Assembly: GCA_964187785.1 (NCBI GenBank)
Contig: OZ076409.1
Span: forward strand, 73,162,001 to 73,226,000
Direction of reading: 5' to 3'
Length of the DNA stretch: 64,000 nt
Source: Amphiscolops sp. MND2022
Taxonomy: Eukaryota
The notes below the pieces were generated by a model. That model was not told where the DNA came from. It did not search any database and was given only the letters and a program-made list of their open reading frames with translations. The first letter of the stretch is position 1. Each line of letters begins with the position of its first letter. Position numbers and translations under genes: made by a program. Below, piece after piece: positions 693-61,240 of this stretch.

Positions 693-898
693 GCAAAAAG
701 CACCGAACTACGGCCCTTACCTTCCCGAGCTACGCAGTATAAGGATTACATATTGGTTCCGACATTTTCATAGAGTTATATCTTGGTAATCTGTCTGGAT
801 ATGCCGAAAAATCAGCACGTGCCTTTTAATACCAAGTTGCTCACAACGACAATTATTTTATATCAACGCCCCCATATTTATCAACGCCCCCCGTCCGT

Positions 899-918
899 GG
901 GCATGCCGAGGCATGCCC
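899..918. promoter_or_regulatory. Conserved palindrome GGGCATGCC-GA-GGCATGCCC, representative copy (putative protein-binding site or hairpin; p53-consensus-like)
   Basis: Perfect 9-bp inverted repeat, nearly invariant at 30 unit ends; function is inferred. Confidence 0.6.
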
Positions 919-963
919 TTCGACGACCCGCACCAAAATATGCGTTAGCGCGGTAGCTGCTAG

Positions 964-2278
964 GTGCCGGGATTTCTATTCGATAAAGTATGTGGCGCGC
1001 CTTGGGTAGGGTCCCTTGCGCGCTCTTGGGTATGGTGTTCACCAGCTAGGAAACAGGGGTCGATTTTTCGGGATCTCCTAAACTAGCCACACGATTTGGC
1101 TGAAATTTGGCACACGTACTCCCCTCGGCACGGTGAAGATGATTTCCTACTGACGTTTTTCCCGCAAAATTTTTTTTGTTGTCCAAAATAACGGTTTTTG
1201 GGGTAAAATTTTGAATTTTTTTTAAATTTTATCTTATATCTCGCCACCGGTTTACGCTAGCGCTTCAAAACCCTGCTAAAGAAAGCTTGCAAACTGTCTC
1301 AGGAATGCGGTGTGAAATTTTCAGCTCAATCGGACTTAAACTCGGGGAGATATAGCGTTTTTCCGGAGCGGGGGGGGTTTCATTTTTCTAACGGTCCAGC
1401 TTATCTTAGCCATTTTTTCGAAAATGTACTCGCCTAAAGACCTCCCCTGGCCGGTTTCATTCCCAGCAAAACCATTTGGCCCTAAATACGGAGTTTCAGC
1501 GTTCCAGCATTCCCGGGCGAAAAGTTGTGGGACTTAGAAAAATTCAAAAATTTTCAAAAAAATTTTTTTCCGTTTTCCGCCCTCCCCCCCTAGGGGAAAA
1601 GACCCCCCAACCAGTAATTTGAGTGAATTCATGTGGAAAGGCCATGTTTAGACGAAAAAATTGCCGTTTAGAACGTCTTTCTATCTCAACCTGACATTGA
1701 CTTATGAAGCTTTAAAGGTGATGTTTGGACGTGTGAAGAATGTAAAAAAAGGAATTTTTTTGATTTTATTTAATCAGAAAGTCATTGAATCACACGCTGT
1801 GAAGCCCAGAGCGTGGTTTCTAATAGTTTGGTATCGTTTAAACGCATTTTGATGTCTTTTTACTCTGTTTAAAAAACTTTTCTCATGAAAATTAATAAAT
1901 TTTGATTACTTTTCTTACTTTCCATTAATTTTTTTTTCTTATATTTTTACTTGAAACAGTTGAGTACATTCCATCTCCCTTCCCGGGGGAGATGAGAATG
2001 TAGTCGCAAAAAGCCGCGAACTACGGCCCATACCTTCCCGAGATACGCAGTATAAAGATAACATAATGGTCCAGACATTTTAATGGAGTTGTATCTTGGT
2101 AATATGTCTGGATTTGCAGAAAAATCAGCACGTGCCATTTTATACCAAGTTGCTCGCAACGACAATTAATTTAAATCAACGCCCCCCACAAAAATCAACG
2201 CCCCCCGTCCGTGGGCATGCCGAGGCATGCCCTTCGACGACGTGCACCAAAATATGCCCCGAGCGCGTTAGCAGCTAG
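964..2278 (+). mobile_element. Type A unit (1315 bp)
   Basis: Starts GTGCCGGGATTTC. 5' hairpin 995-1023, GAGTACATT hairpin ~1962, palindrome 2213-2232, ends CTAG. Confidence 0.75.
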
Positions 2279-3592
2279 GTGCCGGGATTTCTATTCGATA
2301 AAGTATTTTGCGCGGTTGGGTAGGGCCCCGTGAGCGCGCCAGGGGATTGTGTTAGAACAACCGGAAATTCGGCATACGATTTTGGCGATTTTCTAAACTA
2401 TCCATACGATTTGGCTCAAATTTGGCATACGGGTTCCTGAGACAGATATAAGAACTAATTCCTACTGGCGTTTTGCCCGGAAAATTTTTTTTGTTGCCCA
2501 AAACTGAAATTTTCGGCAAAAAAATGCGATTTTTTTTGAAAATTTTTTTTTGAGAGGCCATATCTTTTTTCAGGGTGCCCGGAGCGGGACGCGTTAAACT
2601 GATTATAAACTCTACGGTTCATGGGCTTTACGGAGAACCTAGGCTCGTTTCGCTCGGACAAATAGTCTTGGAGATATAACGGTCTTTTTCGGGAATTTTT
2701 TGAAAATTTTTCTAACGGTCCAGCTTATCTTTGCCATTTTTTCGAAAATGTACTCGCCTAAAGGCCTCCCCTGGCCGGTTTTATTCCCAGCAAAACCATT
2801 TGGCCCTAAATACAGAGTTTCAGCGTTCCAGCATTCCGGGGCGAAAAGTTGTGGGACTTAGAAAAGTTTCAAAATTTTTCAAAATTTTTTTTTCCGTTTT
2901 CCGCCCTCCCCCCCGAGGGGAAAAGACCCCCCAACCAGTAATTTGAGGAAATTCATGTGGAAAGGCCATGTTTAGAGGAGAAAAATGCCGTTTAGATCGT
3001 CTTTTTATTTTAACCTGTCGTTGACTCATGTTGTTTTGAAGGTGATGTTTGGATGTGTGAAGCATGTGAAAAGGTAATTTATTGTGTCTTTAGCTCTTCT
3101 AAAAGCCATTGAGATACACGATGTGTGACTCAGAACGTGTTTAATTCTAATTTAGCAATGCATCAACACTTTTTTGTGTCTTTTGACTCTGTTTAAAAAA
3201 ATTTTTCCGACTAAAATCAAAAATTATTTATAATTATTCACATTTTTTTTTTGATCTCATGACTCGAAACAGTTGAGTACATTCCATCTCCCTTCCCGGG
3301 GGAGATGAGAATGTACTCTTTAGAGACCAGGTACTACAGTACTTACCTTCCCCGAGCAACGCCCCATAAAAATTGCGTTTTGACACAGATATTTTGACAA
3401 AATTTTATCTTTGTAATTTGACTGGAAATGAAGAAAATGCCGCACGTGCTCTTTTATATCAAGTATCTCAACAACGCCATCTCTTTTACGTCAACGTCCC
3501 ATACTTTAAATCAACGCCCACCGTCCGTGGGCATGCCGAGGCATGCCCTTCGACGACGTATAGCAAGATATACCTTGAGCGCGTTAGCCTAG
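2279..3592 (+). mobile_element. Type A unit variant (1314 bp)
   Basis: Starts GTGCCGGGATTTC. Shares the CCATTTGGCCCTAAATAC core; hairpin ~3275, palindrome 3529-3548, ends CTAG. Confidence 0.75.
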
Positions 3593-4878
3593 GTGCCGGG
3601 ATTTCTATTCGATAAAGTATGTGGCGCGTGTGGGTAGGGTCCCTGGCGCGCTCTTGGGTATGGTGTTCACCAGCTAGGAAATAGGGGTCGATTTTTCGGG
3701 ATCTCCTAAACTAGCCACACGATTTGGCTGAAATTTGGCACACGTACTCCCCTCGGCACGGTGAAGATGATTTCCTACTGACGTTTTGCTCGCAAAATTT
3801 TTTTTGTTGTCCAAAATAACGGTTTTTGGGGTAAAATTTTGAATTTTTTTAAAATTTTATCTTATATCTCGCCACCGGTTCACGCTAGCGCTTCAAAACC
3901 CTGCTAAAGAAAGCTTGCAAGCTGTCTCAGGAATGCGGTGTGAAATTTTCAGCTCAATCGGACTTAAACTCGGGGAGATATAGCGTTTTTCCGGAGCGGG
4001 GGGGTTTCATTTTTCTAACGGTCCAGCTTATCTTTGCCATTTTTTCGAAAATGCACTCGCCTAAAGGCCTCCCCTGGCCGGTTTTATTCCCAGCAAAACC
4101 ATTTGGCCCTAAATACGGAGTTTCAGCGTTCCAGCATTCCCGGGCGAAAAGTTGTGGGACTTAGAAAAGTTCAAAAATTTTCAAAAAATTTTTTTTCCGT
4201 TTTCCGCCCTCCCCCCCTAGGGGAAAAGACCCCCCAACCAGTAATTTGAGTGAATTCATGTGGAAAGGCCTTGTTTAGAGGAGAAAAATGCCGTTTAGAA
4301 CGTCTTTTTATCTTGGCTCAACGTTGACTTATGACGTTTTGAAGGTGATGTTTGGAGGTGTAAAGCACCTGAATAGTAAACGTTATGAGTATTTATCTGA
4401 TCTGAAAGCCATTGAGATGAATATGGTTTGCTCAAAACGTAATTCATGGCAGTTTGGCAATCAATCAACACCCTTTGTTGTCGTTTGACATACTTTTTTG
4501 TTGTTATAATAAAAAATTTTGTGTTTTTATTCATTTTTTTGTCATCAAATAACTTGAAACAGTTGAGTACATTCCATCCCCCCCTTCCGGGGGAGATGAG
4601 AATGTACTCGCAAAAAGCACCGAACTACGGTCCTTACCTTCCCGAGCTACGCAGTATAAGGATTACATATTGGTTCCGACATTTTGACAGAGTTATATCT
4701 TGGTAATCTGTCTGGATATGCAGAAAAACCAGCACGTGCTTTTTTATACCAAGTTGCTCACAACGACAATTATTTTATATCAACGCCCCCATATTTATCA
4801 ACGCCCCCCGTCCGTGGGCATGCCGAGGCATGCCCTTCGACAACGTATACCAAGATATGTTCGAGCGCGTTAGCCTAG
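3593..4878 (+). mobile_element. Type A unit (1286 bp)
   Basis: Head matches the 964 unit and tail matches the 1-963 unit. Palindrome 4816-4835, ends CTAG. Confidence 0.75.
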
Positions 4879-6151
4879 GTGCCGGGATTACTATTCGATA
4901 AGGAATTTTGCGCGGTTGGGTAGGGCCCCGTGAGCGCGCCAGGGGATAGTGTTAGAACAACAAGGATTTGGGCATCAGTTGGGAGCGATTTTCTAAACTA
5001 TCCGTACGATTTTGCTGAAATTTGGCACGAAGCTTCCTTGGAACATTCTAAGAACAAATCCCTACTGGCGTTTTGCTGGGAAAAATCAAAAAGTTGGTCA
5101 AAAATGCGATTTTCCGACAAAATTTTGGGGTAAAATTTTTTTGAAACGTTATATCTCGCCACAGGGTCACGCTAGCGCCTCGCAACCTATGATCGTGTTT
5201 TGTTGGGCGTTGTCTGTAGAACACGTATGCCAAATTTGGTGGCGATCGGACTTAAACTCAGGGAGATATAGCGATTTTTTAGGTGCATTTTTTGACATTT
5301 TTTGCATTTGCCGATTTATCTCTGCCGTTTTTGCTCAAATTTTTTTTGAGACACTCTCCTAAAGACCTCCCCTGGCCGGTTTACCTCCCAGAAAAACCAT
5401 TTGGCCCTAAATACGAAGTTTCAGCGTTCTAGCATTCCCGGGCAAAAAGTTGTGGGACTTAGAATAGTTTTTATGGTAACGCAAAATGTGTAAAGTCAAC
5501 TTCAGGCCTCCCAAAGTCAAAGAACTTCCACACAACTAGGATTGCAAGTGGGTGCATGTGGAAAGTACTCGGATAGACGAGAAAAATGAGCTATAGAACG
5601 ACTCTGTAGCTTAACCTGACGTTGACTTATGACAATTTTAGTGTGAGCTTGCTATTTGGTGTAAAAATTCAAATGATGAAAATCGAAGCTAAGTCTCATC
5701 CAAAACTCATCGGAATACGTTCAATGCATCCCAAAGCGGATTAATTCGAGATGTTTAGTGCAGCAACACCATTCAAGACCATTTGACCCATTTTTATAAG
5801 TTTTGACAACGTATTATTCATACGAGAGCACGAAACAGTTGAGTACATTCCATCTCCCTTTCGGGGGAGATGAGAATGTACTCGCTAAAGTCCAGGTACT
5901 ACAGCCCATATTTGCTTTTATGCGACGCTCTTATGCTAGTGCGCATACTTTTTAATCGTTTAACTGAATTAATTTTCTTCTGTCTGCACTTTGACTTTGA
6001 CTTGACATATAGTGAACGTTTTGTCTTACAACTTACAAATGAGTAACGTCAACGCCCCATCCTTGCATCAACGCCCACCGTCCGTGGGCATGCCGAGGCA
6101 TGCCCTTCGACGACGTATGCCAAGATATATCCCAAGCGCGGTAGCCGCTAG
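4879..6151 (+). mobile_element. Type A unit variant (1273 bp)
   Basis: Head resembles the 2279 unit; interior carries the CCACACAACTAG module seen in types G, E and F. Hairpin ~5841, ends CTAG. Confidence 0.72.
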
Positions 6152-7420
6152 GTGGCCGTGTCTTTTCGACGTGCTTTTGCATTGAGGAGTGGGTAGGGCC
6201 CCGCGACGACCTAGAAGAATTGGATGCTCACCGAAACGTGCAGAATTCTACGAGATCTCATAGTTTGAGCCATACGATTTTTCTGAAATTTGGCATGTGG
6301 CCTGGAATTGGTGAGTAGGTAAAACGTGTAGGAGGTGATTTTTCCCAAATTCCACTGTGAGACGAGATATGGGCAAATAACGGTCCCAAAAATGGCAAAA
6401 ATGCACTTTTTTCAACTTTGTCAGCCCATATCTCGTTCCCAGGTGCCCGGAGCGGGACGCGTTAAGCTGATTATAAACTCTAGGGTGTTGAGGCTGTACG
6501 GTGAACTTGGGCCCGTTCCGATCGGACTTGTAGTCTTGGAGAAATAACGGTATTTTTGGGGAACCTTTTCTAACGGTCCAGCTTATCTTTGCCATTTTTT
6601 CGAAAATGTACTCGCCTAAAGGCCTCCCCCTGGCCGAATTTACTCCCAGCAAAACCATTTGGCCCTAAATACGGAGTTTCAGCGTTCCAGCATTCCCGGG
6701 CGAAAAGTTCTGGGACTTGGAAAATTTTCAAAAATTTTCAAAAATTTTTTTTTTCGTTTTCCGGGCCCCCAATGAAGGGGAAACGACCCCCCAACCAGTA
6801 TTTTGAGTTAATTCATGTGGAAAGCCCTTGTTTTGACGAGAAAAATACCGTTTAGAACATCTTTTTATCTTGACTCAACGTTGACTTATGACGTTTTGAA
6901 TGTGATGTAAGGATGTAGGAGGCATGTGATAAGTTGATGTTTTGAGTCTTTATCTCATATGAAAGCGGTTGAGATGCAAGCTGTCCTGCTCAAAACGTCT
7001 TTCGTTGTAATTTTCCAGTGCACCAATACCCTTTGGTGTCATATAAACATACTTTTTGTCGATATATTAACAATTTTAATGTATTTATTCCAATTTTTAT
7101 TATCTTATAACTCAAAACAGTTGAGTACATTTCATCTCCCTTTCGGGGGAGATGAGAATGTACTCGCTAAAGACCTAGCGCCATGACCAAAAGTTTGAAA
7201 CCCACGTTTTTTATCTTCTTACAGACTTGTTTTTGTATTTTTTCGGATTTTTTTAAAAATTAATATACTTGAAATACATTACTTGACTTTACTACTACAA
7301 CCCACCTCCAACGACAACGCCCCCCTGCTTGCATCAACGCCCACCGTCCGTGGGCATGCCGAGGCATGCCCTTCGACGACGTATGCCAAATGCCCAGTGC
7401 CACGCAGTCATTATCGCTAG
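6152..7420 (+). mobile_element. Type B1 unit (1269 bp)
   Basis: Starts GTGGCCGTGTC; near-identical to 8703-9970. Confidence 0.75.
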
Positions 7421-8702
7421 GTGGCCGTGTCTTTTCGACGTGCTTTTGCATTGAGGAGTGGGTAGGGCCCCGCGACGACCTAGAAGAATTGGATGCTCAC
7501 CGAAACGTGCAGAATTCTACGAGATCTCATAGTTTGAGCCATACGATTTTTCTGAAATTTGGCATGTGGCCTGGAATTGGTGAGTAGGTAAAACGTGTAG
7601 AAGGTAATTTTTCCCAAATTCCACTGTGAGAGGAGATATGGGCAAATAACGGACCCAAAAATGGCAAAAATGCACATTTTTCAACTTTGTCAGCCAATAT
7701 CTCTTTTCCAGGTGCCCGTAGCGTTCCGCACGTGGACATCAATATTGCTCAGCGCTGTTGGAGGAGTGCGTGGACAAATTTTGATTTAAATCGGACTTAA
7801 ACTTGACGAGAAATTAACGGTTTTTTGGGCGTTTCCGGGGTAAATTTTTTAACGGTCCAGCTTATCTTTGCCATTTTTTCGAAAATGTACATGCCTAAAG
7901 GCCTCCCCCTGGCCGAATTTACTCCCAGCAAACCCATTTGGCCCTAAATACGGAGTTTCAGCGTTCCAGCATTCCGGGGCGGAAAGTTGTGGGACTTGGA
8001 AAAATTTCAAAATTTTTTCAAATTTTTTTTTCCCGTTTTCCGGGCCCCCAATGAAGGGGAACGACCCCCCAACCAGTATTTTGAGTGAATTCATGTGAAA
8101 CGCCCATGTTTGGAGGAGAAAAATGCCGTTTAGAACATCTTTTTATCTTAACTTGACATTGACTTATGACGTTTTGAATGTGATGTTAGGATATATGAAG
8201 CATGTTAAAAGTTGAAGTTTTGAGTCTTTATCTGATCGGAAAACCATTGAGATACAAGCAGTTTTGCTAAAAACGATTTTCATTGTAGGTTAGCAGAGTA
8301 TTAGTACACTTTGATGTCATTTGAGTATTTTTTTTCTTCTATATAATAACTGTTTTTATGTATTTATTCCAATTTATCTCATCTTTTAACATCAAGCAGT
8401 TGAGTACATTTCATCTCCCTTTCGGGGGAGATGAGAATGTACTCGCTAAAAACCTAATGCTATGGCGCCAATGTTTGGATGGGAAGTTTTCTATGCTTTG
8501 AAAAAAGTTATTTTTAATTACTTGATTTTTTAAAACAATAATTAACATGAAGTACATTACTTGCTCCTACTACTACCACCATACATCTCTAACGTCAACG
8601 CCCCCTGCTTGCATCAACGCCCCATCGTCCGTGGGCATGCCGAGGCATGCCCTTCGACGACGTATGCCAAATGCCCAGTGCCACGCAGTCTTTCCCCGCT
8701 AG
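7421..8702 (+). mobile_element. Type B2 unit (1282 bp)
   Basis: Starts GTGGCCGTGTC; near-identical to 9971-11253. Confidence 0.75.
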
Positions 8703-9970
8703 GTGGCCGTGTCTTTTCGACGTGCTTTTGCATTGAGGAGTGGGTAGGGCCCCGCGACGACCTAGAAGAATTGGATGCTCACCGAAACGTGCAGAATTCT
8801 ACGAGATCTCATAGTTTGAGCCATACGATTTTTCTGAAATTTGGCATGTGGCCTGGAATTGGTGAGTAGGTAAAACGTGTAGGAGGTGATTTTTCCCAAA
8901 TTCCACTGTGAGAGGAGATATGGGCAAATAACGGTCCCAAAAATGGCAAAAATGCACTTTTTTCAACTTTGTCAGCCCATATCTCGTTCCCAGGTGCCCG
9001 GAGCGGGACGCGTTAAGCTGAATATAAACTCTAGGGTGTTGAGGCTGTACGGTGAACTTGGGCCCGTTCCGATCGGACTTGTAGTCTTGGAGAAATAACG
9101 GTATTTTTGGGGAACCTTTTCTAACGGTCCAGCTTATCTTTGCCATTTTTTCGAAAATGTACTCGCCTAAAGGCCTCCCCCTGGCCGAATTTACTCCCAG
9201 CAAAACCATTTGGCCCTAAATACGGAGTTTCAGCGTTCCAGCATTCCCGGGCGAAAAGTTGTGGGACTTGGAAAATTTTCAAAAATTTTCAAAAAATTTT
9301 TTTTCGTTTTCCGGGCCCCCAATGAAGGGGAAACGACCCCCCAACCAGTAATTTGAGTGAATGCATGTCAAAAGCCCTTGTTTTGACGAGAAAAATACCG
9401 TTTAGAACATCTTTTTATCTTGACTCAACGTTGACTTATGACGTTTTGAATGTGATGTAAGGATGTAGGAGGCATGTGAAAAGTTGATGTTTTGAGTCTT
9501 TATCTCATATGAAAGCGGTTGAGATGCAAGCTGTCCTGCTCAAAACGTCTTTCGTTGTAATTTTCCAGTGCACCAATACCCTTTGGTGTCATATAAACAT
9601 ACTTTTCGTCGATATATTAACAATTTTAATGTATTTATTCCAATTTTTATCATCTTATAACTCAAAACAGTTGAGTACATTTCATCTCCCTTTCGGGGGA
9701 GATGAGAATGTACTCGCTAAAGACCTAGCGCCATGACCAAAAGTTTGAAACCCGCGTTTTTTATCTTCTTACAGACTTGTTTTTGTATTTTTTCGGAATT
9801 TTTTAAAAATTCATATACTTGAAATACATTACTTGACTTTACTACTACAACCCACCTCCAACGACAACGCCCCCCTGCTTGCATCAACGCCCACCGTCCG
9901 TGGGCATGCCGAGGCATGCCCTTCGACGACGTATGCCAAATGCCCAGTGCCACGCAGTCATTATCGCTAG
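8703..9970 (+). mobile_element. Type B1 unit (1268 bp)
   Basis: Copy of 6152-7420 at offset 2551; the ORF track shows the same offset (6248 vs 8799). Confidence 0.75.
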
Positions 9971-11253
9971 GTGGCCGTGTCTTTTCGACGTGCTTTTGCA
10001 TTGAGGAGTGGGTAGGGCCCCGCGACGACCTAGAAGAATTGGATGCTCACCGAAACGTGCAGAATTCTACGAGATCTCATAGTTTGAGCCATACGATTTT
10101 TCTGAAATTTGGCATGTGGCCTGGAATTGGTGAGTAGGTAAAACGTGTAGAAGGTAATTTTTCCCAAATTCCACTGTGAGAGGAGATATGGGCAAATAAC
10201 GGACCCAAAAATGGCAAAAATGCACATTTTTCAACTTTGTCAGCCAATATCTCTTTTCCAGGTGCCCGTAGCGTTCCGCACGTGGACATCAATATTGCTC
10301 AGCGCTGTTGGAGGAGTGCGTGGACAAATTTTGGTTTAAATCGGACTTAAACTTGACGAGAAATTAACGGTTTTTTGGGCGTTTCCGGGGTAAATTTTTT
10401 AACGGTCCAGCTTATCTTTGCCATTTTTTCGAAAATGTACATGCCTAAAGGCCTCCCCCTGGCCGAATTTACTCCCAGCAAACCCATTTGGCCCTAAATA
10501 CGGAGTTTCAGCGTTCCAGCATTCCGGGGCGGAAAGTTGTGGGACTTGGAAAAATTTCAAAATTTTTTCAAAAATTTTTTTTCCCGTTTTCCGGGCCCCC
10601 AATGAAGGGGAACGACCCCCCAACCAGTATTTTGAGTGAATTCATGTGGAACGCCCATGTTTGGAGGAGAAAAATGCCGTTTAGAACATCTTTTTATCTT
10701 AACTTGACATTGACTTATGACGTTTTGAATGTGATGTTAGGATATATGAAGCATGTTAAAAGTTGAAGTTTTGAGTCTTTATCTCATCGGAAAACCATTG
10801 AGATACAAGCAGTTTTGCTAAAAACGATTTTCATTGTAGGTTAGCAGAGTATTAGTACACTTTGATGTCATTTGAGTATTTTTTTCTTCTATATAATAAC
10901 TGTTTTTATGTATTTATTCCAATTTATCTCATCTTTTAACATCAAGCAGTTGAGTACATTTCATCTCCCTTTCGGGGGAGATGAGAATGTACTCGCTAAA
11001 AACCTAATGCTATGGCGCCAATGTTTGGATGGGAAGTTTTCTATGCTTTGAAAAAAGTTATTTTTAATTACTTGATTTTTTAAAACAATAATTAACATGA
11101 AGTACATTACTTGCTCCTACTACTACCACCATACATCTCTAACGTCAACGCCCCCTGCTTGCATCAACGCCCCATCGTCCGTGGGCATGCCGAGGCATGC
11201 CCTTCGACGACGTATGCCAAATGCCCAGTGCCACGCAGTCTTTCCCCGGCTAG
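9971..11253 (+). mobile_element. Type B2 unit (1283 bp)
   Basis: Copy of 7421-8702; ends CCCCGGCTAG. Confidence 0.75.
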
Positions 11254-12645
11254 GTGGTCGGGTATTTTTTTTTACTCGTAGATGGCGTTTGCGAGGCTTT
11301 GGGGAGGGCCCCGTGCCGAGCCTGTACCGAAATTTACCACATACCAGAAGTGTCCGATTTAATCGAGATCTCAAAAACTAACCGTTAGAATTCTCTGAAA
11401 TTTTGCATGTGGCCCCTAATCAATGAGTAATGAAAAAGTGTAGAAGTGACGGTTGCTGAAAAACTTGTCTTTGTTGCACTTTTTGCGCAATTTTTGTCGC
11501 ATTGTTGCGTTTTTTATGTCATTTTCGAGTTTTCAAGCAAAAAACTCATAGATGCTTTGTTCCTAGCGTATCAAGTGTGGAGCACGAAAAGTTGTAGCAT
11601 CTTCCATTACGTATGCTGAGAAAATTTGGTTGCCCTCGGATTACCCCCCACAGAGATAGAGGGGTGCATCCGTGTATTTTTGACCCCTAAATTTGGGAAA
11701 TTGCTAATTTTCGTAATAAAGCCGTAGATTTAGCGCGTGCACACCCTGCTGAAGATTTGTTAGGCATTTTGAGATAGATCCGATGACATGCGTTGAGTTC
11801 ACCCCCATCACCCCCTTGACCGGAAATGAACGTTTTTGTGCACTTTCAGACCGGAAGTCTCCATTTTCACCGGTAAGGAGGCATTGTACGAGCAACTAGC
11901 AGGATATCAAAAGTGAAGTATAACCTGGGGTCAACTTAATGACCACGTGTTGTCCAGTCATGGGTTTCACTATGACCGGAAATGGGCTTAAAACCCCCTT
12001 TTGGTAGTATTTTTATCAATTTTCCTTGTGCTTGGTCCACATTCAAGTTGCGTAAGTCAGTTGAACCAGTGAGAGCATAAAATATATATTCACTGCGTAG
12101 TCGTAACTGACACTGCCAGATACCGGAAGTAACCCCCTGTGACCGGAAGAGGTCAATTTTGACCGGAAATGGTCCAAAAAGTAGCGTAAATGCAGTTTTC
12201 AATGCTTCTTAAGGTCAAGTTATTAGTATTTTTCAATTTGAATGCTTTTTTCCACGCAAAAAGCTAACATCGTTGCATGTTTTGCTGAAGATCAGAAAAG
12301 TGATCACCATTGTCACCCCCGATAGCCTTTCAAGTTGACCTTTGGTCAATCTTGAAGGCTATCTGTTCTGAAAACGAAAAATAGTGGAATTTTGTTTCCT
12401 CCTTTCTCTTGATATTTTTCCTTCAAATCAAGTTGTCAAAAGAAAGACATTTGTTCAACTGAGTGATCTGAAACCTGTCCAGAGGTGTCACCCGGACGAA
12501 TACCATTTCAAGCTGAAGTACACAAATCAGGGTAGTATTAGACATCACACACTCCTACCAACTCCCACCGTCTGTGGGCATGCCGAGGCATGCCCTTCGA
12601 CGACGTATGCCAAATAGCGCTACAGGGCGCCCCCATTCCCGCTAG
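11254..12645 (+). mobile_element. Type C unit (1392 bp; ACCGGAA-rich, GATAGCC hairpin)
   Basis: Starts GTGGTCGGGTAT. ACCGGAA at 12122/12142/12162, GATAGCC...GGCTATC hairpin 12321-12363, then palindrome and CTAG. Confidence 0.72.
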
Positions 12646-16205: not shown

Positions 16206-17480
16206 GTGGCCGGGAACTTTTTTTCCTGCATTTTTCTGTCCAATTGGGGGAGGGGCCCCAAGTGGCTGTTATCCGGTTTTACTACCTACCCTAAACACGC
16301 TCAAAAAATGACGATCTCGAAAACCACCCCTTAGATTTTCCTGAAACTTTGCATACAGGCCTAGAATCAAATCCTAAGAACTATTTCCTACTGGCGTTTT
16401 TCCGAATTTTTTCAAAAAGTTGGTCAAAAATGCAACAAAAGTTGCCAATGGACATAAAAAACGCAACTTTTCGACTTTGAGGGCCCATAACTTTTTTCAG
16501 AGTGCCCGGAGCGATTCGCACAATAACAACAATAATGCTCAGCATTGTCGGAGGAGTGCGTGGACGAAGTTTGAGGTGAATCGAATGAAAATTGATTGAG
16601 AAATAAACGCAAATGTTTGTGCATTTGTTGCAAACACCAGTCTATCTCTGCCATTTTCGCCAAAAATTTTTCCCAGAGCCTTTATAGGAGGCAACCCCTG
16701 CCCAAATTTCTGCCGAGCAAACTCTTTTGGCCCTAAATACGGAGTTTCAGCATTCTAGGATTCCCGGGCGAAAAGTTGTGGGACTTAGAAAAATTTCAAA
16801 AAAACGCAAAAATTGTAAAAAGTAACTTCAGGCGCCCCAAAGTCTCAAAACTTCCACACAACTAGTATTGCAAGTGAATGCATGTGGAAAGTACTCGGAT
16901 AGACGAGAAAAATGAGCTATAGAACAACTCTGTAGCTTAATCTGAAGTTGACTTATGACTTTTTGAGTGTGAGCATCCTATAGGATTTTAATGTCAAAAA
17001 TGAGATTTTGTAAGTCATGTCTCATCAAAAACTCATCGGAATACGTTCAATCATCCCCATAGCTGTTCAATCACCGTTGCTTAGTAGAGCAACGCCATTT
17101 AATGTCTTTGGACCCATTTTGAAAATTTTCCTTACCGTCTTATTCGTCCGATATCACGAAACAATTGAGTACATTCCATCTCCCCCCTTGTGGGGGAGAT
17201 GAGAATGTACTCGCCAAAGACCTAAAACAATGGCCCATATTGGTTTTTATTTGACTTTTCTCACAATATTGCACACGGATAGCTGTGTTTGGTAAAAGTT
17301 TTCCTTTGCACCATGTCTCCAGAAGCAAACCCACTTCTTTAGCTTACTACTTCTACTCAAACATCACTAACGTCAACGCCACACACTCTCACTAACGCCC
17401 ACCGTCTGTGGGCATGCCGAGGCATGCCCTTCGACGACGTATGCCAAATAGCGCCACAGGGCGCCCCCAATTTCCGCTAG
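16206..17480 (+). mobile_element. Type G unit (1275 bp)
   Basis: Starts GTGGCCGGGAAC. Hairpin ~17167, palindrome, then GCGCC-ACAG-GGCGC hairpin and CTAG. Confidence 0.72.
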
Positions 17481-50500: not shown

Positions 50501-53500
50501 AAATTTCACCCCGTTTGTATTCGGCCGACGGGTAGGGTCCTGGCGGCCGACGATCCGCCTTAAGCTAGCGGTATGTAGCAGAAATTGCAAAAAAAAGACC
50601 TAAAATTTAATCTAACCATTAGAATTTGCTCAAAATTTGCATGCGGCCCTCAAATCCTATTGCAAGACGAAGTTCCTGCTGACGCTAAGCGTTCTATAGA
50701 CTTTATAAAAAGTTATGGCCACATTTTTGATCACCTAGTAAAGTAAAATGAGGAAAATTTTTACAAAGTCGCTGATAACTCAAAATGCAATAATTTTTGG
50801 ACGTTGACTGTGAAACAAGCTCGGAACCTTCATTTCGTGTCTGTTACAATTCACTAAACACAAAAGACGTAAAGTTTTTACATTTTTTGAAAATTCGACC
50901 TTTTTGAAATTTTTTTCAATACTATCAGTACCTCATATGTCAAAAATACGTCTGAAAAAATTTTTTATTTGCTTTAAATTGGAAACCTTGGTATACATGG
51001 TTTTTGATGGAACCTACTCACTGCCAAAGACTCAACAGTTAGCATCCAATGTGAAATAAAAATTTTTTTCGAGGTCATAAGTGTTTCACAAGGTTTTCAT
51101 GACTTAGTATTAAATTACAAACTGGTCATTTTCAACATAAAAATTTGGTCGAGGCTTGTCGGATATAGTCTAAATGCTCACGAATGGTCCTACTGGCAAC
51201 GTAGGAACCATTTATAGTAATAAAAAGTTTTAAAAAAATTTTTTCAACCGGTCTTCAGTCGTTTTTCAGACATTCGGAACTTAACTTAGAAAATTTTCGT
51301 GTCGAATACCCATTTTTGGTAAAGTCGAAATTTGAAATTCAGCTCTTGAAGCAAAATTATTTACTCTGACGTAACCAGTGGGGCTAATGATACTGAACAA
51401 CACCGTTGGGACTGATACCAGAGGCTCCAATAACATATGAGTCGGGATAAGACGTTATTCGGAGCAAAACCTAAAAATCGAAGTAAACACCTCGAAAGCC
51501 TGGGATCACAAGGAAAAGTGATTTCATCAAATGTTCACTCTTTTTTGTCAATCACTATGTACACAGAGTGTGTAGTGTGAGTTTCAGCACTAAAATGTGG
51601 TTTTTGAAGAAATCGGGCTGCACAAGGGGTGATAAGAGACACATTTCTGTCATATACGACTAAGTTTCCAAACATTTTTAGCCAATTATCTCAGAACTCT
51701 AACATCGTAAAACACTTTAATGTACTTTTTTCAAAGGTTTGAGAATAGATGAACACTGTGGTTGATCAGAAACACTCAGCTCTTTGGTTTTCTAGAATAA
51801 TTCCCTTCGCATGTGTTACATTTGTAGCATGAAAAAAAAAAACAGAAGCTTGAAATTATGGATTTTTTCTACGATAGATTTGCAATTATTGTACCTAAAA
51901 ACTATTTTAACACTTCTCGCACCTTTTTACGGATCTAATATCATTGAAAATGTTATTCACAATGCTGACATGTGTTCTTTCTATGATCCGTACTGAGCAA
52001 TACTTGCATATTTTATATGTACCTGTTAACTGAATCTTGTGATAGCCTTCTGAGTTGGCCTTGTGCCAACTTGGGAAGGCTATCACATCAAAAAATTTTC
52101 TTCAAAAATACTTTTTGTTTATTGGATATTACAGTCGATACCCTTTTTCGTGATTGTATACTACCGTTAGTATCTTCCATCAGGTCACCTGACGATAGCA
52201 TGCAGTGTTTGAAAAATACCTATGAACTCGAAAACATTTGTTTTATTATTTGTTATATAATTTATTTTTGAAATAATAAATATCAACTTCTAACCTTTAT
52301 ATACTATCACATTTGTTGTCTCTTCCGTTATCAGTCTTCCGTCACCCATGATCAGCCTATGTCATGACCCCGTGATTTGTACAACAACGCCATATACCAA
52401 CACATCAACGCCCACCGTCTGTGGGCATGCCGAGGCATGCCCTTCGACGACGTTTGCCAAATAAGCCTTACCCGCACTCTGGAGTGCGGTAGCAGCTAGG
52501 TGGGCGGGGGTAATTCCCCAACAAAAATTACGGCCGGCGGGTTGGGTCCTGCCGGACGTTCAAATAGCGCGAAGCATCTAGTAGAAAACAAGGAGTCCTG
52601 AAACAGCGATTTTAAAATTGAACCGTTAGAATTTGGTTTTAGATTGCATGCGGCCCTAAAATCCCCATACGAATGGAAGTTCCTGCTGGCGTTAAGCGAT
52701 TGAAATAATATATAAAAAGTTATGGCCCATTTTTGGGTCACCGAGAAGGTCAAAATGAAGAAAATTTTTACAAAGTCGCTGATAACTCAAAACACATTAT
52801 TTTTTGGACTTTGACTGTGAAACAAGCTTGGAACCTTCATTTCGTGGCTGTGGCATTGCACTGAACACAAAAGATGTAAAGTTTTCACATTTTTTGAAAA
52901 TTCGACATTTTTGAATTTTTTTTCACTACTATCAGTACCCCATATGTCAAAAACACCTCAGAAAAAAAATTTTATTTGCTTTAAATTGGAAACCTTGGTA
53001 TCCATGGTTTCTGTCGGACCCTACTCGCAGCCAAACACTCAACAGTTTCCATCCAATGTGAAAATAAAATTTTTTTCGAGGTCATAGGTGTATCACAAGG
53101 ATTTCACAACTTAGTATTAATTTACAAAATGGTCATTTTCAACATCATATTTTCATCGAGGCATGTCGGATATAGTCCTAATGCTCACGACCGGTCCTAC
53201 TGGCAACGTAATACCCATTTATAGAAATATAAAGTTTTAAAAAAATATTTTCACCCGATCTTCAGTCATTTTTCAGTCATTCGGAACTTAACTTAGAAAA
53301 ATTTCGACCAAAATATCCATTTTTTGTCAGGTCGAAAAATCAAATTCAGATTTTTAAGCAAAATTATTAACTCTGACGTAACCCATGGGGCCCATGATAC
53401 TCAAAACAACGATTGACACTGGTATCAATGGCTCCAATAACATATGAGTCGCGATAAGACGTTATTTTGAGCAATACGTCTCAATTGAGGTAAACATCTC

Positions 53501-56479
53501 GCAAGCCAGGGATCACTGTGAAAAGTGATTTCATCAAAAATTTACTCATTTTCGTCAATCACCATGTGCACAGAATGCGTAGGGTGCGTTTCAGCACTAT
53601 AATGAGGTTTTTGAAGGCATCGGGTTGTTCAAGGGGTGGTATGAGACAATTTTTTCCCATATACTACTGTATTTTCCAAAACTTTTTGCCAATTATCTGG
53701 AAAAACTAACTTGACAAAATACTTTCAACTACTTTATTCAAAGGTTACAATATAGATGAACACTGTGGTTGATCAGAAACTTTCATCTCTTTCGTTTTCC
53801 GAAATATTTCTCTTCGAATGTGTTACTTTTGTAGCCGGGTAAAAAACCGAAACTGAAAAATACGCAATTTTGCTGAGATAGAATCACAATGGTTGCGCCT
53901 AAAATCTCTTTAAAGATTTCTAACGCGACCTTACGGACCTAAAATGATTGGAAATGCCATTCACAATGCTGACATGTGCCCTTTCTACGATCCTGGCTGG
54001 ACAAGTGTCGCATATTTTTCAAGTACCTGTTAACTGAATTTTGTGATAGCCTTTCAAGTTGGCCTTGTGTCAACTTGAGAAGGCTGTCACATCAAAAAAC
54101 TATCAACAAAATTACGTTTCGTTTATGTAATAATGCTGTCAATGATTAATTTAGTGATTCTATCCTACCGTTGGTACCTTCCATCAGACCAGATAACGAT
54201 TGCATTCAGTCTTTGATAAAAACCTATGAACTCGAATAGATTTTTCTGTTTTTTTTTCTAACAGAAAAGTAAAAAATAATAAATTTTTTATTAATAACAC
54301 CTTTAAGTACTATTACTTTCACACACAATCGTTACCGTGATCAGCCACACCCACCCCGTGCGGCCTCGCCCTGTTAGTAGTGCAACGCCACATATTAACA
54401 TCAACGCCCACAGTCTGTGGGCATGCCGAGGCATGCCCTTCGACGACGTATGGCAAATTTAGCGTTGCCCGCACTCTGGAGTGCGGTAGCAGCTAGGTGG
54501 GCGGGGGTAATTCCCCAACAAAAATTACGGCCGGCGGGTTGGGTCCTGCCGGACGTCAAATAGCAAAGAATATCTAGTAGGAAACGGCGACACAGAATCG
54601 CGATTTTTAAATCTAACCACAATTTTTTGGACTTGGAGTGCATGCGGCCCTGAAATGCCCATACGAATCGAAGTTCCTGCTGACGTTAAGCGATTGAAAT
54701 AATATATAAAAAATTATGGCCCATTTTTCACTCACAAAGAAGGGTAAAATGAGGAAATTTTTAACAAAGTCGCTGATAACTCAAAATGTGTTAATTTTTG
54801 GACATTGACTGTGAAACAAGCTCGAAACCTTCATTTCGTGGCTGTGGCATTGCACTGAACACAAAAGATGTAAAGTTTTTACATTTTTTGAAAATTCGAA
54901 ATTTTTGAAATTTTTTTCACTACTATCAGTACCCCATATGTCAAAAACGCCTCAGAAATTTTTTTTATTTGCTTTAAATTGGAAACCTTGGTATCCATGG
55001 TTTCTGTCGGATCCTACTCGCAGTCAAACACCCAACAGTTTGCATACAATGTGAAAATAAAAATTTTTTCGGGGTCATAAGCGTTTCACAAGGATTTCTC
55101 AACTTAGTTTCAATTTACAAATTGGTCACATTGAACACATTATTTTCATCGAGGCGCGTCAGATACCGCCCTAAAGCTCACGGACGGTCCTACTGGCAAC
55201 GTAGCAACCATTTATAGTAATATAAAAGATTAAAAAAATTTTTTCACCCGGGCTTCAGTCATTTTTCAGTCATTCGGAACTTAACTTAGAAAAATTTCGA
55301 CCAAAATACCCATTTTTTGTCAGGTCGAAAAATCAAATTCAGATTTTTAAGCAAAATTATTATTTCTGACGTAACTCATGGGGCCCATGATACTCAAAAC
55401 AACGATTGACACTGGTATCAATGGCTCCAATAACATATGAGTCGCGATCGGACGTTATTTTGAGCAATACGTCTCAATTGAGGTAAAGATCTCGCAAGCC
55501 AGCGATCACTGTCAAATGTGATTTCATCAAAAATTTACTCATTTTTGTCAATCATTATGTGCACAGAATGCGTAGCATGCGTTTCAGCACTATAATGAGA
55601 TTTTTCAATGCATCGAGTTGCTCAAGGGGTGGTACGAGACATTTTTGTCCCATATACTACTGTATTTTCCAAAATTTTTAGCCCAATATCTGGAAATACA
55701 AACTTGACAAAATACTTTCAACTACTTTATTCAAAGGTTACAATATAGATGAACACTGTGGTTGATCAGAAACTTTCATCTCTTTCGTTTTCCGAAATAT
55801 TTTCCTTCGCATGTGTTATATTTGTATCAGAAAAAAAATCGAAACTGAAAAATACGCTATTTTGCTAATATAGAATCGCAATGATTGTGCCTAAAAACTC
55901 TTTAAACACTTCTAACGCGACCTTACGCACCCAAAATGATCGAAAATGCTATTCACAATGGTGACATGTGCTCTTTCAACGATCCTGGCTGGACAAGGTT
56001 TGCATATTTTTCAAGTACCTGTCAGCTGAATCTTGTGATAGCCTTTTAAGTTGGCCTTGTGTCAACTTGGGAAGGCTATCACATCAAACAACCATCAACA
56101 AAAATAATTTTTGTTTATTGGATATTACAGTTGATACCTTATTTCGTGATTCTATACTACCGTTAGTATATTCCATGAGGTCACCTTACGATTGCATTCA
56201 GACTTTGATGAAAACCTATGAACTCAAAGTCACATTTATATATTTTTTGCCCAAAAAATCATCAAAAACATCTAATATATATAAAATTGAGTCTTTAACT
56301 TTTTTACGTTTCAAGTTTCTGCCGTTATTAGGCCAATCAACTTCCTACAGCCACGCTCTCTGTCATACTGTACAACGCCACATAGTGTTGCGACGTGCAC
56401 GGTCTGTGGGCATGCCGAGGCATGCCCTTCGACGACGTATGCCGAATACCGCGGGCCTACGCCCGCGCTCCCCGGCTAG
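44538..56479 (+). mobile_element. Six type J units: 44538-46519, 46520-48504, 48505-50490, 50491-52499, 52500-54496, 54497-56479
   Basis: Same architecture and collinear interior as the J units at 29826-39774; lengths 1982-2009 bp. Confidence 0.8.
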
Positions 56480-59400
56480 GTGGGCGGGGGTAATTCCCCA
56501 ACAAAAAAATCGGCCGGCGGGTCGGGTCCTGCCGGCCGTCCAAAATCAAAATCCTCCTAGTAGAAAACGGCATGTCAAACGAGCTATTTTTTTATTTAAC
56601 CATACGAATTTCACCATTTTTTGCATGCGGCCCTGAAATGGCCATACGAGACGAAGTTCCTGCTGACGTTTTGCGATGTAAATGTTTTATAAAAAGTTAT
56701 GGCCGATTTGTCATTCACCTAGAAGGGTAAAATGAGGAAAATTTTAACAAAGTCGCTGATAACTCAAAATGTGTTAATTTTTGGACTTTGACAGTGAAAC
56801 AAGCTTGGAACTGTCATTTCGTGGCTGTGGCATTGCACTGAACACAAAAGATGTAAAGTTTTCACATTTTTTGATAATTCGACATTTTTGATTTTTTTTT
56901 CACTACTATCAGTACACTATATGTCAAAAACGCCTCTGAAAAAAATTTTTATTTGCTTAAAATTAGAAACCTTGGTATCCATGGTTTCCGTCAGTACCTA
57001 CTCGCTGCCAAACGCTCAACAGTTTGCATCCAATGTGAAAATATAATTTTTTTCGAGGTCATAGGTGTTTCACAAGGATTTCTCAACTTAGTATCTATTT
57101 ACAAATTGGTCATTTTGAACCCATTATTTTCATCGAAGCGTGTCAGATACTACCCTAATGCTCACGAATGGGCCTACTGGCAACGTTGGAACCATTTTTA
57201 GTAATAGAAAGTATTAAAAAAATATTTTCACCCGGTCTTCAGTCATTTTTCAGACATTCGGTACTTAACTTAGAAAAATTTCGCATCAAAAACCCATATT
57301 TGGTAGGGTCGAAATTTGAAATTCAGTTTTTTATGCAAAATTATTAACTCTGACGTAACCAATGGAGCCCATGATACTCAAAAACACGATTGGGACTGGT
57401 ATCAGTGGCTCCAATAACATATGAGCCGCGATAAGACGTTATTCAGAGCAAACGCTCTAAATCGAAGTAAACATCTCTGAAGCCTGGGATCACAGTGAAA
57501 TGTGATATCACCAAAAGTTTACTCTTTTTTGTCAATCACTATGTACACAGAGTGCGTAGGGTGAGTTTCAGGACTATAATGAGGTTTTTGAAGTAATCGC
57601 GCTGCTCAAGGGGTGGTATGAGACTATTTTTTCCCATATACTACTACATTTCCATAAATTTGCAGTCCATTGTCTTGGAAAGATAACTTCACAAAAACAA
57701 TTTTTCTACTCTATTCAGTTATTAGAATAAAGTTGAACACTGTGGGTGATCAGAAATGCTCAATTCTTTTGGTTTTTAAAAAAAGTCCTTCGCATTCGTT
57801 ACATTTGTGGAAGGAAGGTTATCAGTAGCTCCAAAAAAAACGAAATTTAGCACGAACAGACATGCAACTATGCAAAGCAAAAACGTTTTTACAACTTCCG
57901 ACGTCATTATTTTACCCAAGAAGTTCGAAAATATCATTCGCAATGCTGTCATTCGCTATATATACGATCGCGGTCAATTTACAAACATTTAGATTTCATT
58001 GTTCTGCTTGAAAACCAATTTTTGTCAGGTCGAAATTTTAAATTTTACCTGGGGAGCAATACCCTTCACGCTGAAGTAAACAGTGGGGCCCAAGTTACTC
58101 AAAAACAAGAAAGAGACTGCTACAATATGTCCTAATAACATATGGACCACGATAGTACGTTTTTCACACAAAAAACTCTCATCCGAAGTAAATATGTTGA
58201 AAGCTTTTAATCACCGTGAGAAGTGATTTCATCAAAAAATAACTCTTTTTTGTCAATCACTATTTACACAGAATTTGTAAAGTTAGTTTGAGTCATGAAA
58301 TGAGGCTTTACCGTAATATGGGTTGCTCAAGGTGTTATATAAGACAAAAACTTCCTCTTTTCTACTAGCTTCTTCAAATATTTCAACCCTTTGTCACAAT
58401 AAGTTAATATTCAAAATCTCTTTGAAATGTATCTTTATGTTGGGGTGAAGTCTAAGAACAATAACTATGATCGAAGAATGCTAGTACTGGTGTTTGAACC
58501 ATGTCCGGATGAACAAATCACAAAATCATCAAAAAATTGTTCCCTTTTTTGGTTATTTTGGCAGTACTAAAAATGTTAGCCGATAAATAATTTTTTCGAT
58601 GGCACCATTGGATTCCTCTCAAAAAGTTGGTTATATGACCTGTGTAATAACCCCGTATCTTTTCAATTTAAATATATTTAAAAAGCCAACTATTTTGACC
58701 AAAATCCTAAAAATCATACCATTTCCTAAAAATTTTCAAATGCACCCCATTTGACGTATAAGATAAGCACAGAAAACTATCATATACCGATCAACTCTAC
58801 TCCTATTGTAGATTATTAGAATTTTGTTTAGAATGAATTTTGATGAATAATAAAAAAATTTTGAACCCTCCAAAAATGGGCCAAAATTACACGAAAAAAT
58901 TGACCTTAAAATACCAAAATGTCAAAAAATCATCAAAACCCAGGCTTCTTGGGGTTCTATCAACTCCGCGTGGTCCACAGAGTATGCTAAAACAGGTTTT
59001 ACCCGTTTTTGAGCAATATGTGAAAAAGCCGACATTTTTGGGAAAGAAAAACATACCATTTCCTAAAAAAATTCAAATGCACGTCATTTGCCGTATTAGA
59101 ATAGCACAGAAAACTATCACATACCTATCAACTCTACTTTCATTGCAGATGAACAGAATTTTGTTTAGAATAAATTTTACCGGATAATAAAAAAATTTGA
59201 ATCCTTCAAAAATGGGCCAAAAATGCACGAAAAAATGGACCTTAAAAATTTAAAATGTCAAAAAATCATCAAAACAACAGCTTCTTGGGGTTCTATCAAC
59301 TCCACGAGGTCCACAGAGTATGCTAAAACAGGTTTTACCCGTTTTTGAGCAATATGTGAAAAAGCCGACATTTTTGGGAAAGAAAAACATACCATTTCCT

Positions 59401-61240
59401 AAAAAAATTCAAATGCACGCCATTTGCCGTATGAAAATAGCACAGAAAACTATCACATACCAATCAACTCTACTTTCATTGCAGATGAACAGAATTTTGT
59501 TTAGAATAAACTTTACCGGATAATACAAAAATTTGATTCCTTCTAAAATGGGCCAAAATTACACGAAAAAATGGACCTTAAAATTTTAAAATGTCAAAAA
59601 ATCATCAAAACCACGGCTTCTTGGGGTTCTATCAACTCCACGTGGTCCACAGAGTATGCTTAACCCGGTTTTACCCATCTTTGAGCAAAATGTGAAAATA
59701 CCGACATTTTTGGAAAAGAAAAACATGCCATTTTCTAATAAATTTCAAATGCACGCCATTTGCTGTATGAGAATAACACAGAAAGCTGTCACATACCGAT
59801 CAACTCTACTTCCATTGTAGATTATCAGAAGTTTGTTCAGAATAAATTTTGAAGGATAATAAAAAAATTTGAATCCATCAAAAATTGGCCAAAATTACAC
59901 GAAAAAATTGACCTTAAAATATCAAAATGTCAAAAAATCATCAAAACCACAATTTCTTGGCGTTCTATCAACTCCATATGATACCAAACCAAGTACTGCC
60001 AATCGTTTGAGTTATAATAAAAAAACGTCTTTTTTGGCAAGAATTCCATACCATAAATAATAATCATGTTCCATATAAGAAGCGAATCATTTCAGATATA
60101 TACCCTGTTCATTTTTTTAATATTACCGATTATTAATTTATTAGATGTTTTGAATGTGAGCTTCCTAAAAGGTTCAGGTGTGATGATACGTAAATAGAAC
60201 CTTAGTTTCATCGAAATCTCAATTGAATATGTCCAATCTTAACCATCAGATAACAAGAAACACTTAAGTACATTCCATCTCCCCATCGGGGGAGATGAGA
60301 ATGTACTTTCGAGAAGCCAAATACGTCCAACATTCAAACTTTTGTAACTTTGTATGTAACTCCTGAAACGAAGAAGGAATAAAATTGTTTCTGGTACATA
60401 CATGAGTCTTTACTTCAGCTTCTATTTCTGCTGAACAAAACCATTCGACTCTTTTGCCGGAGTTAAGATCGATTGTATTACCCAGTGAACAAAGGCATGA
60501 CTGAAAACGTTTACTACTTTGTTCATAATTTTCCGGCCTTCCGAAATGATGAAACGTCCACATAACTAAGATAGCAAGTGAATGACTGCGAAATGCACCT
60601 TATTAGATGAGGTAAATAACGTGTAAAACTCTCCTTTATCCTAACATGAGGTTGAGTAATGATCATTTGAGAATAGTTTGATATGTGAATACAATAGTAT
60701 AAAACAAGTACATTTTATATGAATAACGCCGTGGAAAGCGTTCAGAAAGGACAGTAGGCTTGTTTGGAACATGTATGTGTGGTGTCCCTTGGTGGCGTTC
60801 GCTTAGTGTATATGTCGAGGGGTATTCGAGTTGTTATGATAGAATTTACACACAAGTCTTTTGTTTTTTGGTTTTTTTAAAATGTCGTTAAGTACCTGCA
60901 TTCTATCCCCTTCTCAGAGATGACGTGAAGTTACGTTTGCTAAATAAATGTCATCGAAAGATCACACTCCCGACGAAATTAACTATCTTAACACGTGTTT
61001 AGAATTTTAAATAAACAACCGTATAAGATTTTTATATTTCATTGAGTTTGATGAAGTCTTTTGTTCTTCTCACTACTATTTCAACCAATACACATATCCG
61101 TTACCATATCACATGTCTCCATTAGTACAACGCCACATAGCGTTCCGACGCCCACAGTCTGTGGGCATGCCAAGGCATGCCCTTCGACGACGTATGGCAA
61201 ATGGAGCCATGCCCGCCGTCTTTACGGCGGTAGCGGCTAG
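56480..61240 (+). mobile_element. Type K long composite unit (4761 bp)
   Basis: Collinear with 39775-44537 but diverged. Hairpin ~60267, palindrome 61163-61182, terminal hairpin CCGCCGT-CTTT-ACGGCGG, CTAG 61237-61240. Confidence 0.75.
58715..60050 (+). repeat. Internal tandem repeat, ~336-bp monomer, ~4 copies
   Basis: Anchor recurs at 58715, 59052, 59388, 59724. Confidence 0.9.

Follow-up and report, generated by a model that had tools for sequence, protein, structure and literature searches.

As PMC4778049 describes it, the Helitron Helraiser places a hairpin 11 nt before its 3′ CTAG, forms precise head-to-tail circles and gains new 3′ ends by read-through; it needs its left end, and its right end is not strictly needed. 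DNA transposons with a specific target are rare in eukaryotes, as PMC8869645 puts it, and the consensus response element of p53 is given in PMC3485254 as two RRRCWWGYYY decamers with a spacer of 0–13. Here we analyse a 64-kb stretch of DNA from Amphiscolops sp. MND2022 (contig OZ076409.1; 64,000 nucleotides, hereafter the window), which consists of more than 30 different gene-less units lying end to end and joined at one short sequence. An earlier note on this stretch had drawn attention to a near-invariant module at the 3′ ends of the units, made of direct repeats and a palindrome, and had likened it to a replication origin or a recombinase-binding site. We found no published description of such an array, and Repbase may hold an entry for this family.

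Both ends of the array fall beyond the window. Its units (U01–U32 where whole; Table 1) comprise 1.3-kb types, one 2.2-kb type, one 2.4-kb type and a 2-kb family that includes a long form, and many types have only blocks in common, at 65–80% identity. Among 57 stop-to-stop frames of at least 90 aa in the window, none has a Pfam match above the cut-off, three weak matches all lying below it. Successive units meet at the core (G/C)CTAGGTG, all 33 copies of which lie on the + strand and exclusively at junctions. Unit types change exactly at CTAGGTG, and no unit is nested in another. Where the same head (5′ end of a unit) follows different tails (3′ ends), 27 of 29 comparisons show identity extending no further than 4 bases leftward from CTAG; where the same tail precedes different heads, it reaches at most 2 bases to the right of CTAGGTG in 8 of 9. 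The 33 joints comprise 19 tails and 12 heads in 26 combinations, by an ungapped clustering that over-splits some tails. Adjoining 2-kb units are 84.4% alike (9 pairs) against 85.4% over all 55 pairs (11 of the 14 units used), so that unit order looks like draws from a pool.

The joints lie apart from the module. One unit type without it is joined to three different heads and three different preceding tails, with the core alone in common; homologous crossing-over within the module therefore cannot explain the joints. Such crossing-over, in a near-identical sequence, would also place the switches inside the module, whereas they fall in the core, 39–54 bp away. A scan of the window found no head and no intact module inside any unit. 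The columns flanking the core vary freely, with no dyad around it, and 28 folds revealed no common pairing across the junction. With precise ends and shuffled combinations, we consider it likely that mobile units have stacked here site-specifically.

The module itself comprises two upstream repeats, a 20-bp dyad and a conserved tail. The dyad, GGCATGCC-NN-GGCATGCC, has 30 matches with at most 2 mismatches, against 0.00 expected from 100 shuffles, bearing out the count of 30 ends in the earlier note; 25 are the exact 20-mer with outer G..C, three have an outer A..T pair, one has an inner mismatch (35726) and one a central AA (61163). The module is wholly missing at 3 of the 33 unit ends (19856, 24784 and 27162). 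The tail 14-mer TTCGACGACGTATG is exact in 23 of 30 modules. Exact (A/G)ACGCC repeats within 60 nt upstream of the dyad number two in 18 of 30 modules, one in 11 and none in one, with a spacing of 18–20 nt in 15 of the 18 that have two. The examples of such pairs given in the earlier note (864/882 and 6050/6069) are correct, while 12 of the 30 modules have fewer than two exact repeats. From the end of the dyad, it is 39–54 nt to the start of CTAG and 43–58 nt to its end, the latter matching the distance first reported.

Compared position by position, the major-base fraction is 0.98 in the dyad columns and 0.96 in the tail columns, against 0.41–0.43 upstream (−150 to −40), in an ungapped profile of 15 selected sequences that represent 14 types of the window plus L002, a metagenome contig of 1172 bp. 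A module of about 55 bp is thus 96–98% conserved across unit types with unrelated upstream flanks. L002 holds a full joint and keeps both the module and the junction layout: its upstream body is 70–73% like U14 and U19, its downstream head 72% like U10, and its module is identical to that of U14 at 51/51 positions (44–51/51 against all 14 types). The earlier note had proposed strong selection on a binding module and had named, as evidence to the contrary, recently mobile copies that commonly lack it. Three units that are 99.5–100% identical do lack it, in part the situation envisaged, and the module is not the breakage site; its conservation nonetheless supports selection on a predicted protein-bound cis module of a mobile element.

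Each arm of the dyad is itself palindromic, with a 10-bp period, and in 29 of 30 dyads the 20-mer consists of two RRRCWWGYYY decamers with spacer 0 and one mismatch, at position 10. No further two-decamer p53 site occurs elsewhere in the window, and half-sites are not enriched in unit bodies (98 versus 93.8 shuffled). Among random dyads of the same shape, 0.03% (3 in 10,000) fit the p53 consensus and 0.4% have self-palindromic arms, a test picked after the motif was seen, so that the figure flatters. The outer bases change together at exactly the three places that had been reported (Table 1), a change first read as a compensatory substitution in a hairpin. Since G..C to A..T stays R..Y in the p53 consensus, no hairpin is needed to explain it; found in two window types and L002, it may reflect one or two events rather than three. 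Nor does the proposed extension of the stem by CGTC..GACG covary, its outer left base being C in 19, A in 9 and G in 2 dyads and the partner G in 29 of 30. A doubly symmetric p53-family site describes the dyad better than does a hairpin with compensatory changes, and the dyad's core is read most simply as a predicted site for a host p53-family tetramer. Taken separately, the chances that a p53-family protein is the dyad's binder seem to us evenly balanced. A lone p53-like half-site lies at 30456–30475 and at the equivalent place in other 2-kb units (e.g. 32465, 36400, 45195, 49160 and 55150), with a centre that differs between them (CATG, CTTG, CGTG or CGCG).

The unit ends also carry hairpins that are kept in structure rather than sequence. 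A head hairpin with an NNGGGY loop occurs in 32 of 33 heads; its stems fold at −8.8 kcal/mol with their own arms and −5.7 kcal/mol with swapped arms (12 types, permutation p 0.0002, the related types not being independent). It is more stable on the + strand in 11 of 12 types, and G.T pairs occur in 9 of 14 distinct stems, A.C in none. In the 2-kb family, a second hairpin stands in the tail, 6–10 nt before CTAG. The loop of the head hairpin had been said to mirror the palindrome across the junction. It does start 38–55 nt after CTAGGT, but the distances do not match joint by joint (46 versus 55 at 21127, 54 versus 40 at 35800); as they belong to different, shuffled units, the mirroring is coarse. 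The union at unit ends of signals kept in structure only with one sequence-invariant block suggests a single-stranded step for the former and a DNA-binding protein for the latter. Heads also hold several + strand G-runs (e.g. 29826–29880), a possible quadruplex or R-loop signal.

Table 1. Coordinates of features in the window (position 1 is its first letter)
Feature	Position	Strand	Remarks
Uninterrupted head-to-tail array	1..64000	+	32 whole units U01–U32 (1268–4763 bp) and two cut units, single orientation
Junction core (G/C)CTAGGTG, first of 33	959..966	+	33 matches vs 1.06 expected; type switches map here
Other junction cores, 1–16	2274, 3588, 4874, 6147, 7416, 8698, 9966, 11249, 12641, 14016, 16201, 17476, 19855, 21126, 22404, 24783	+	
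Other junction cores, 17–32	27161, 28550, 29821, 31804, 33810, 35799, 37786, 39770, 44533, 46515, 48500, 50486, 52495, 54492, 56475, 61236	+	
Terminal module, first copy	864..932	+	Two CAACGCC repeats, dyad and TTCGACGAC tail
20-bp dyad, first copy	899..918	.	Zero-spacer p53-type response element match; 30 copies
Dyad starts 1–15	899, 2213, 3529, 4816, 6086, 7352, 8633, 9902, 11183, 12576, 13949, 16136, 17410, 21061, 22335		
Dyad starts 16–30	28483, 29757, 31737, 33738, 35726, 37719, 39703, 44461, 46448, 48433, 50419, 52423, 54419, 56408, 61163		
Dyad variant with A..T outer pair	21061..21080	.	Also 22335, 29757 and L002
Decayed second module inside U11	15905..15975	+	Dyad 15940–15959
Head hairpin, NNGGGY loop (example)	995..1023	+	Stem sequence varies by type, pairing kept; absent from U11
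Tail hairpin between module and CTAG (2-kb family example)	33787..33804	+	Five different 7-bp stems there in 2-kb family
Internal imperfect dyad, version 1	1965..2002	.	About 290–310 bp from 3′ end of most 1.3-kb types; also L002
Internal imperfect dyad, version 2	13670..13712	.	320–460 bp from 3′ end of U09, U10, U18 and 2-kb family
2-kb family	29822..64000	+	14 units, 76–98% alike, mosaic; three are the long form
Duplicated two-unit block	6148..11249	+	U05-U06 and U07-U08; 98.7% and 99.5% identity
U13, module-less type	17477..19855	+	Final ~450 bp unique in window; still ends GCTAG
U16	22405..24783	+	2379/2379 identical to U13; neighbours differ on both sides
U17	24784..27161	+	99.5% identical to U13/U16
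336-bp internal tandem repeat, long unit U25	42005..43355	.	Also U32, 58710–59976

We tentatively favour, as a somewhat less than even prospect when taken whole, an account in which the units are self-stacking non-autonomous elements moved by an HUH enzyme acting in trans, with a module bound by a p53-family protein. Given site-specific stacking, an HUH enzyme would be slightly the better choice over any other. A Helitron- or Replitron-like HUH nickase, encoded elsewhere, would start at the head, peel off the + strand and stop at CTAG just past the tail hairpin. The element would close into a circle with a CTAGGTG joint, and this circle would enter a joint already in place, itself a CTAGGTG site; each such insertion would leave two usable sites, so that arrays grow without nesting. 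The module would be a protein-binding cis element rather than a cut site, raising the success of transposition without being strictly needed, and a host p53-family tetramer seated on it may open or transcribe the end of the element in germline or damaged cells. With its intact head, foreign 450-bp tail and final CTAG, the module-less U13 fits the bypass of a Helitron terminator that gives rise to new 3′ ends.

Several observations weigh against this account. The window shows neither an autonomous element nor an empty site nor a solo insertion, and solo insertions are missing from L002 and from X1, a sequencing run described below, as well; no head begins with TC and no joint reads A|T (33/33 joints), and L002 has CGAG rather than CTAG in a core that reads CGAGGTG. 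As regards the hairpins, U11 has none in its head; G-richness may account for the + strand bias of the head; a clear tail hairpin is confined to the 2-kb family and U15, with stems of 3–5 bp in most 1.3-kb types and none in U13; and six hand-picked tails all fold slightly more stably on the − strand. The p53 match has its own difficulties. Position 10 is G or A in all 30 dyads and never the consensus pyrimidine, conservation over ~55 bp reaches well past the 20-mer, and the decayed copy at 15940 keeps its dyad while losing the p53 core C and G, through a joint change of C4 and G17 that preserves pairing. Palindromes can be repaired by template switching, and this paired decay fits such repair as well as a hairpin or another dyad binder. 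Ordinary processes are also seen in the array. The repeat of U05–U08 indicates that block duplication is at work, units are mosaic, and tails are exchanged between types (U09 and U12 are 94% alike over their final 90 bp), so that gene conversion contributes; the identity of U13 and U16 could stem from gene conversion as well.

The same stacking might instead be the work of a Crypton-like tyrosine recombinase, with circles excised by a crossover in the 7-bp core and re-integrated joint into joint, and with the module and head hairpin serving as arm-type or single-strand recognition sites, like a cargo-less integron; we judge this proposal unlikely. It draws on the 7–8-bp core common to every joint and on the ease with which a conservative crossover accounts for precise ends and the absence of nesting, and Cryptons are reported with 4–6-bp terminal direct repeats and proposed circles (as stated in PMC3212892), some CryptonV families being target-specific (in the account of PMC8869645). 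Yet no 11–13-bp inverted arms surround the core, the folds lack a common cross-junction pairing, one core base differs in L002, and the animal Cryptons of PMC3212892 are, as characterised there, without terminal repeats. For the module alone, another contender, possible although we would not bet on it, treats it as an origin or transposase site belonging to the element, with iterons and an extruded hairpin to which the element's enzyme binds, and takes the p53 match as coincidental; this is compatible with either enzyme. The conservation of the whole ~55 bp, rather than the 20-mer alone, and the true double stem change in the decayed copy speak for it, as does the mention in PMC10288648 of direct repeats beside a hairpin as marks of rolling-circle plasmid origins. 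What it leaves unaccounted for is that the arms are self-palindromic with a 10-bp period, needless for a hairpin and found in 0.4% of random arms, that the cut site lies 39–54 bp off at a variable distance, that three near-identical units do without the module and 12 of 30 modules without two exact repeats, and that the stem extension does not covary.

Dispensing with a dedicated enzyme, one could regard the array as a satellite library, in which illegitimate recombination, acting at some short motif, rearranges long repeats that contain a conserved box for a host protein. Meloidogyne satellites, as portrayed in PMC3694981, have conserved motifs as obligatory monomer junctions, and like families cluster here, units are mosaic, a two-unit block is duplicated and 336-bp repeats lie inside units; but the switches spare a near-identical 55-bp module and fall in an 8-bp core, neighbours are not homogenised, and covarying hairpins stand at both ends, which makes this reading distinctly improbable. 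We give marginally less credence still to a route through RNA, in which the tail would be a p53-driven promoter for the next unit and an RNA starting at the joint would be copied back by a site-specific retroelement or would encode a small structured RNA. The promoters of small RNAs sit about 40–75 bp upstream, the module lies ~40–75 bp upstream of the next head, and G.T wobble would suit an RNA no less than single-stranded DNA. However, none of the 32 whole units has a 5′ truncation or an A-rich tail, none of 12 units tested has DIRS/Ngaro-type repeats between end and interior, the distance from module to joint varies by 15 nt, and nothing in Rfam, not even a ribozyme, matches the window at gathering score, nor is there a tRNA gene, with one weak Rfam match (E 0.31) in 23 kb scanned. 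Three further candidates were rejected: DDE transposons inserted twice with a common target duplication, for want of terminal inverted repeats; spliced-leader genes with AG|GT at the joint, since it is in the presumptive exon that the sequence varies; and a ribozyme like that of hepatitis delta virus in the head, which its topology and Rfam speak against.

The family is not confined to this window, as L002 and X1 together show. L002 may come from another species or from another subfamily of the same species. X1 was the only matching sequencing run found (share 0.06), with no RNA run among those listed; against positions 11250–21126 it yielded 32 contig pieces at a depth of 2–5, with no usable coverage of a joint, seven of them at ≥99% identity, six at 95–99%, one at 90–95% and 18 below 90%, which shows a close organism and further subfamilies. 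Motif scans returned no match in viral contigs or prokaryote genomes and two loci in metagenomes, L001 and L002. We rejected L001 as a relative: it is gene-dense, with 62% GC, has the dyad alone between flanks resembling bacterial terminators, and was not among the top 40 BLAST rows. Its copy of the dyad (L001 8001–8024), which we take to be a chance match, sits as a more extended hairpin in an intergenic stretch of this GC-rich contig of bacterial type.

Further observations concern the interior of the units. Every type tested has one of two versions of an internal imperfect dyad, unrelated to each other, which share the same relative place (290–500 bp from the 3′ end) and have conserved asymmetric bulges. 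Version 1 lies 500 bp from the 3′ end in U11 and U13 and 960 bp in U25. Such a dyad could prime second-strand synthesis. The single unit without a head hairpin, U11 (14017–16201), with a second, decayed module 242 bp short of its end, appears to be put together from D-like and G-like parts. The 450-bp tail of the module-less type (19396–19855) has no match elsewhere in the window and is a candidate for captured DNA. Bodies at 17477–19855 and 39771–44533 are made of diverged modules of ~330–340 bp, about two nucleosome repeats, and the long units hold fresh 336-bp tandem copies. Similar heads cluster along the array (U01–U04, U05–U08 and U20–U33) though neighbours are not more alike, which suggests bursts in time or family-matched insertion. 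GC content is 33–44% in the window, and CpG is not depleted (0.97). The host is presumably an invertebrate, and the internal motifs may resemble repeats associated with invertebrate Helentrons.

If a family does target its own joint, it would have adopted a harmless-harbour strategy; mobile elements would thereby lead directly to satellite arrays, and a new integrating enzyme with sequence specificity might be traced through them. When a transposon carries a p53 site, this is usually put down to an accident of which the host later made use; an invariant p53 site at the ends of many diverged non-coding elements, if confirmed as such, would mean that the element needs p53-family binding. A bolder proposal, which we think improbable, is a new class of mobile DNA in animals, in which integron-like libraries consist of diverged cassettes without genes. 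These would insert exclusively into the joint of their own circle, under licence from a host p53-family protein acting through the conserved subterminal response element, and the genome guardian would thus time transposition, with module-less units such as U13 as cheats on a neighbour's site.

We compared the units with described element classes by their published definitions, as set out in the relevant parts of PMC11417382, PMC4067079 and PMC13085455. Like the Helitrons (HLE1) Helraiser and Helibat, as presented in PMC4778049 and PMC11417382, they have no terminal inverted repeats, precise head-to-tail joints and internal tandem repeats, and they may share a 3′ CTAG after a hairpin and read-through 3′ ends. 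For the Helitron 3′ CTRR, the window has CTAG at 33 of 33 joints and L002 CGAG; the Helitron hairpin about 11 nt before the 3′ end has as counterparts clear 7-bp stems in the 2-kb family and U15, weak ones in most 1.3-kb types and none in U13. Unlike Helitrons, they have no 5′ TC, GTG follows CTAG at every joint, there is no A|T target within the array, where every unit is flanked by a G-rich core, and many families are stacked without nesting at one self-made site, with an invariant module 39–54 bp inside the end. HINE/DINE-1 elements (non-autonomous Helentrons, HLE2) are likewise non-coding, with palindromes near both ends, central repeats and a palindromic motif 38–60 bp from the 3′ end, in the description of PMC4067079; our units differ in that their heads lack a corresponding sub-terminal inverted repeat and in joints that are G-rich rather than TT. 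The 12–15-bp sub-terminal inverted repeats of Helentrons and HINEs are absent, the two ends of a unit sharing inverted matches of at most 5–8 nt (mean 5.7 for own ends, 6.0 across types and 5.9 shuffled; 17 representatives), and the window joints show neither T-rich ends nor a TT target.

Replitrons, as covered in PMC10288648, resemble the units in a short direct repeat at both ends, a right-end hairpin, non-autonomous partners and insertion after RG, compatible with AG|GTG; they are described there from plants, algae and protists, and mixed arrays are not part of that description. The units have no fuzzy ends or variable duplications, and no Rep was found in the window. Cryptons, too, have a short terminal direct repeat and a presumed circle (so far as PMC3212892 states), whereas the window shows neither inverted arms (11–13 bp round a 6–8-bp spacer) nor a recombinase; the 7–8-bp core, shared by neighbours, does constitute a short terminal direct repeat of Replitron or Crypton kind and is not specific to Cryptons. 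None of the 12 units tested for DIRS/Ngaro organisation has a match between its ends and its interior at E<0.01. The window also lacks the kinetoplast minicircle CSB-3 12-mer (0 matches at ≤1 mismatch), and the nonanucleotide of the CRESS-virus origin stem-loop has 7 matches versus 9.3 expected, none at a unit end. Meloidogyne satellite boxes, in the terms of PMC3694981, also join divergent repeats by a short conserved motif, but here the units are of kilobase size with structured ends, and neighbours are not homogenised. The zebrafish element EnSpm-N6_DR is, according to PMC3485254, a non-autonomous DNA element with a two-decamer p53 site; in our units, by comparison, many diverged families have the p53-like site at the same subterminal position, as their most conserved part, pointing to a predicted use by the element itself rather than to host exaptation. 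The array shows more structure than ordinary satellites do and is probably a self-targeting variant, so far undescribed, of non-autonomous elements that form circles.

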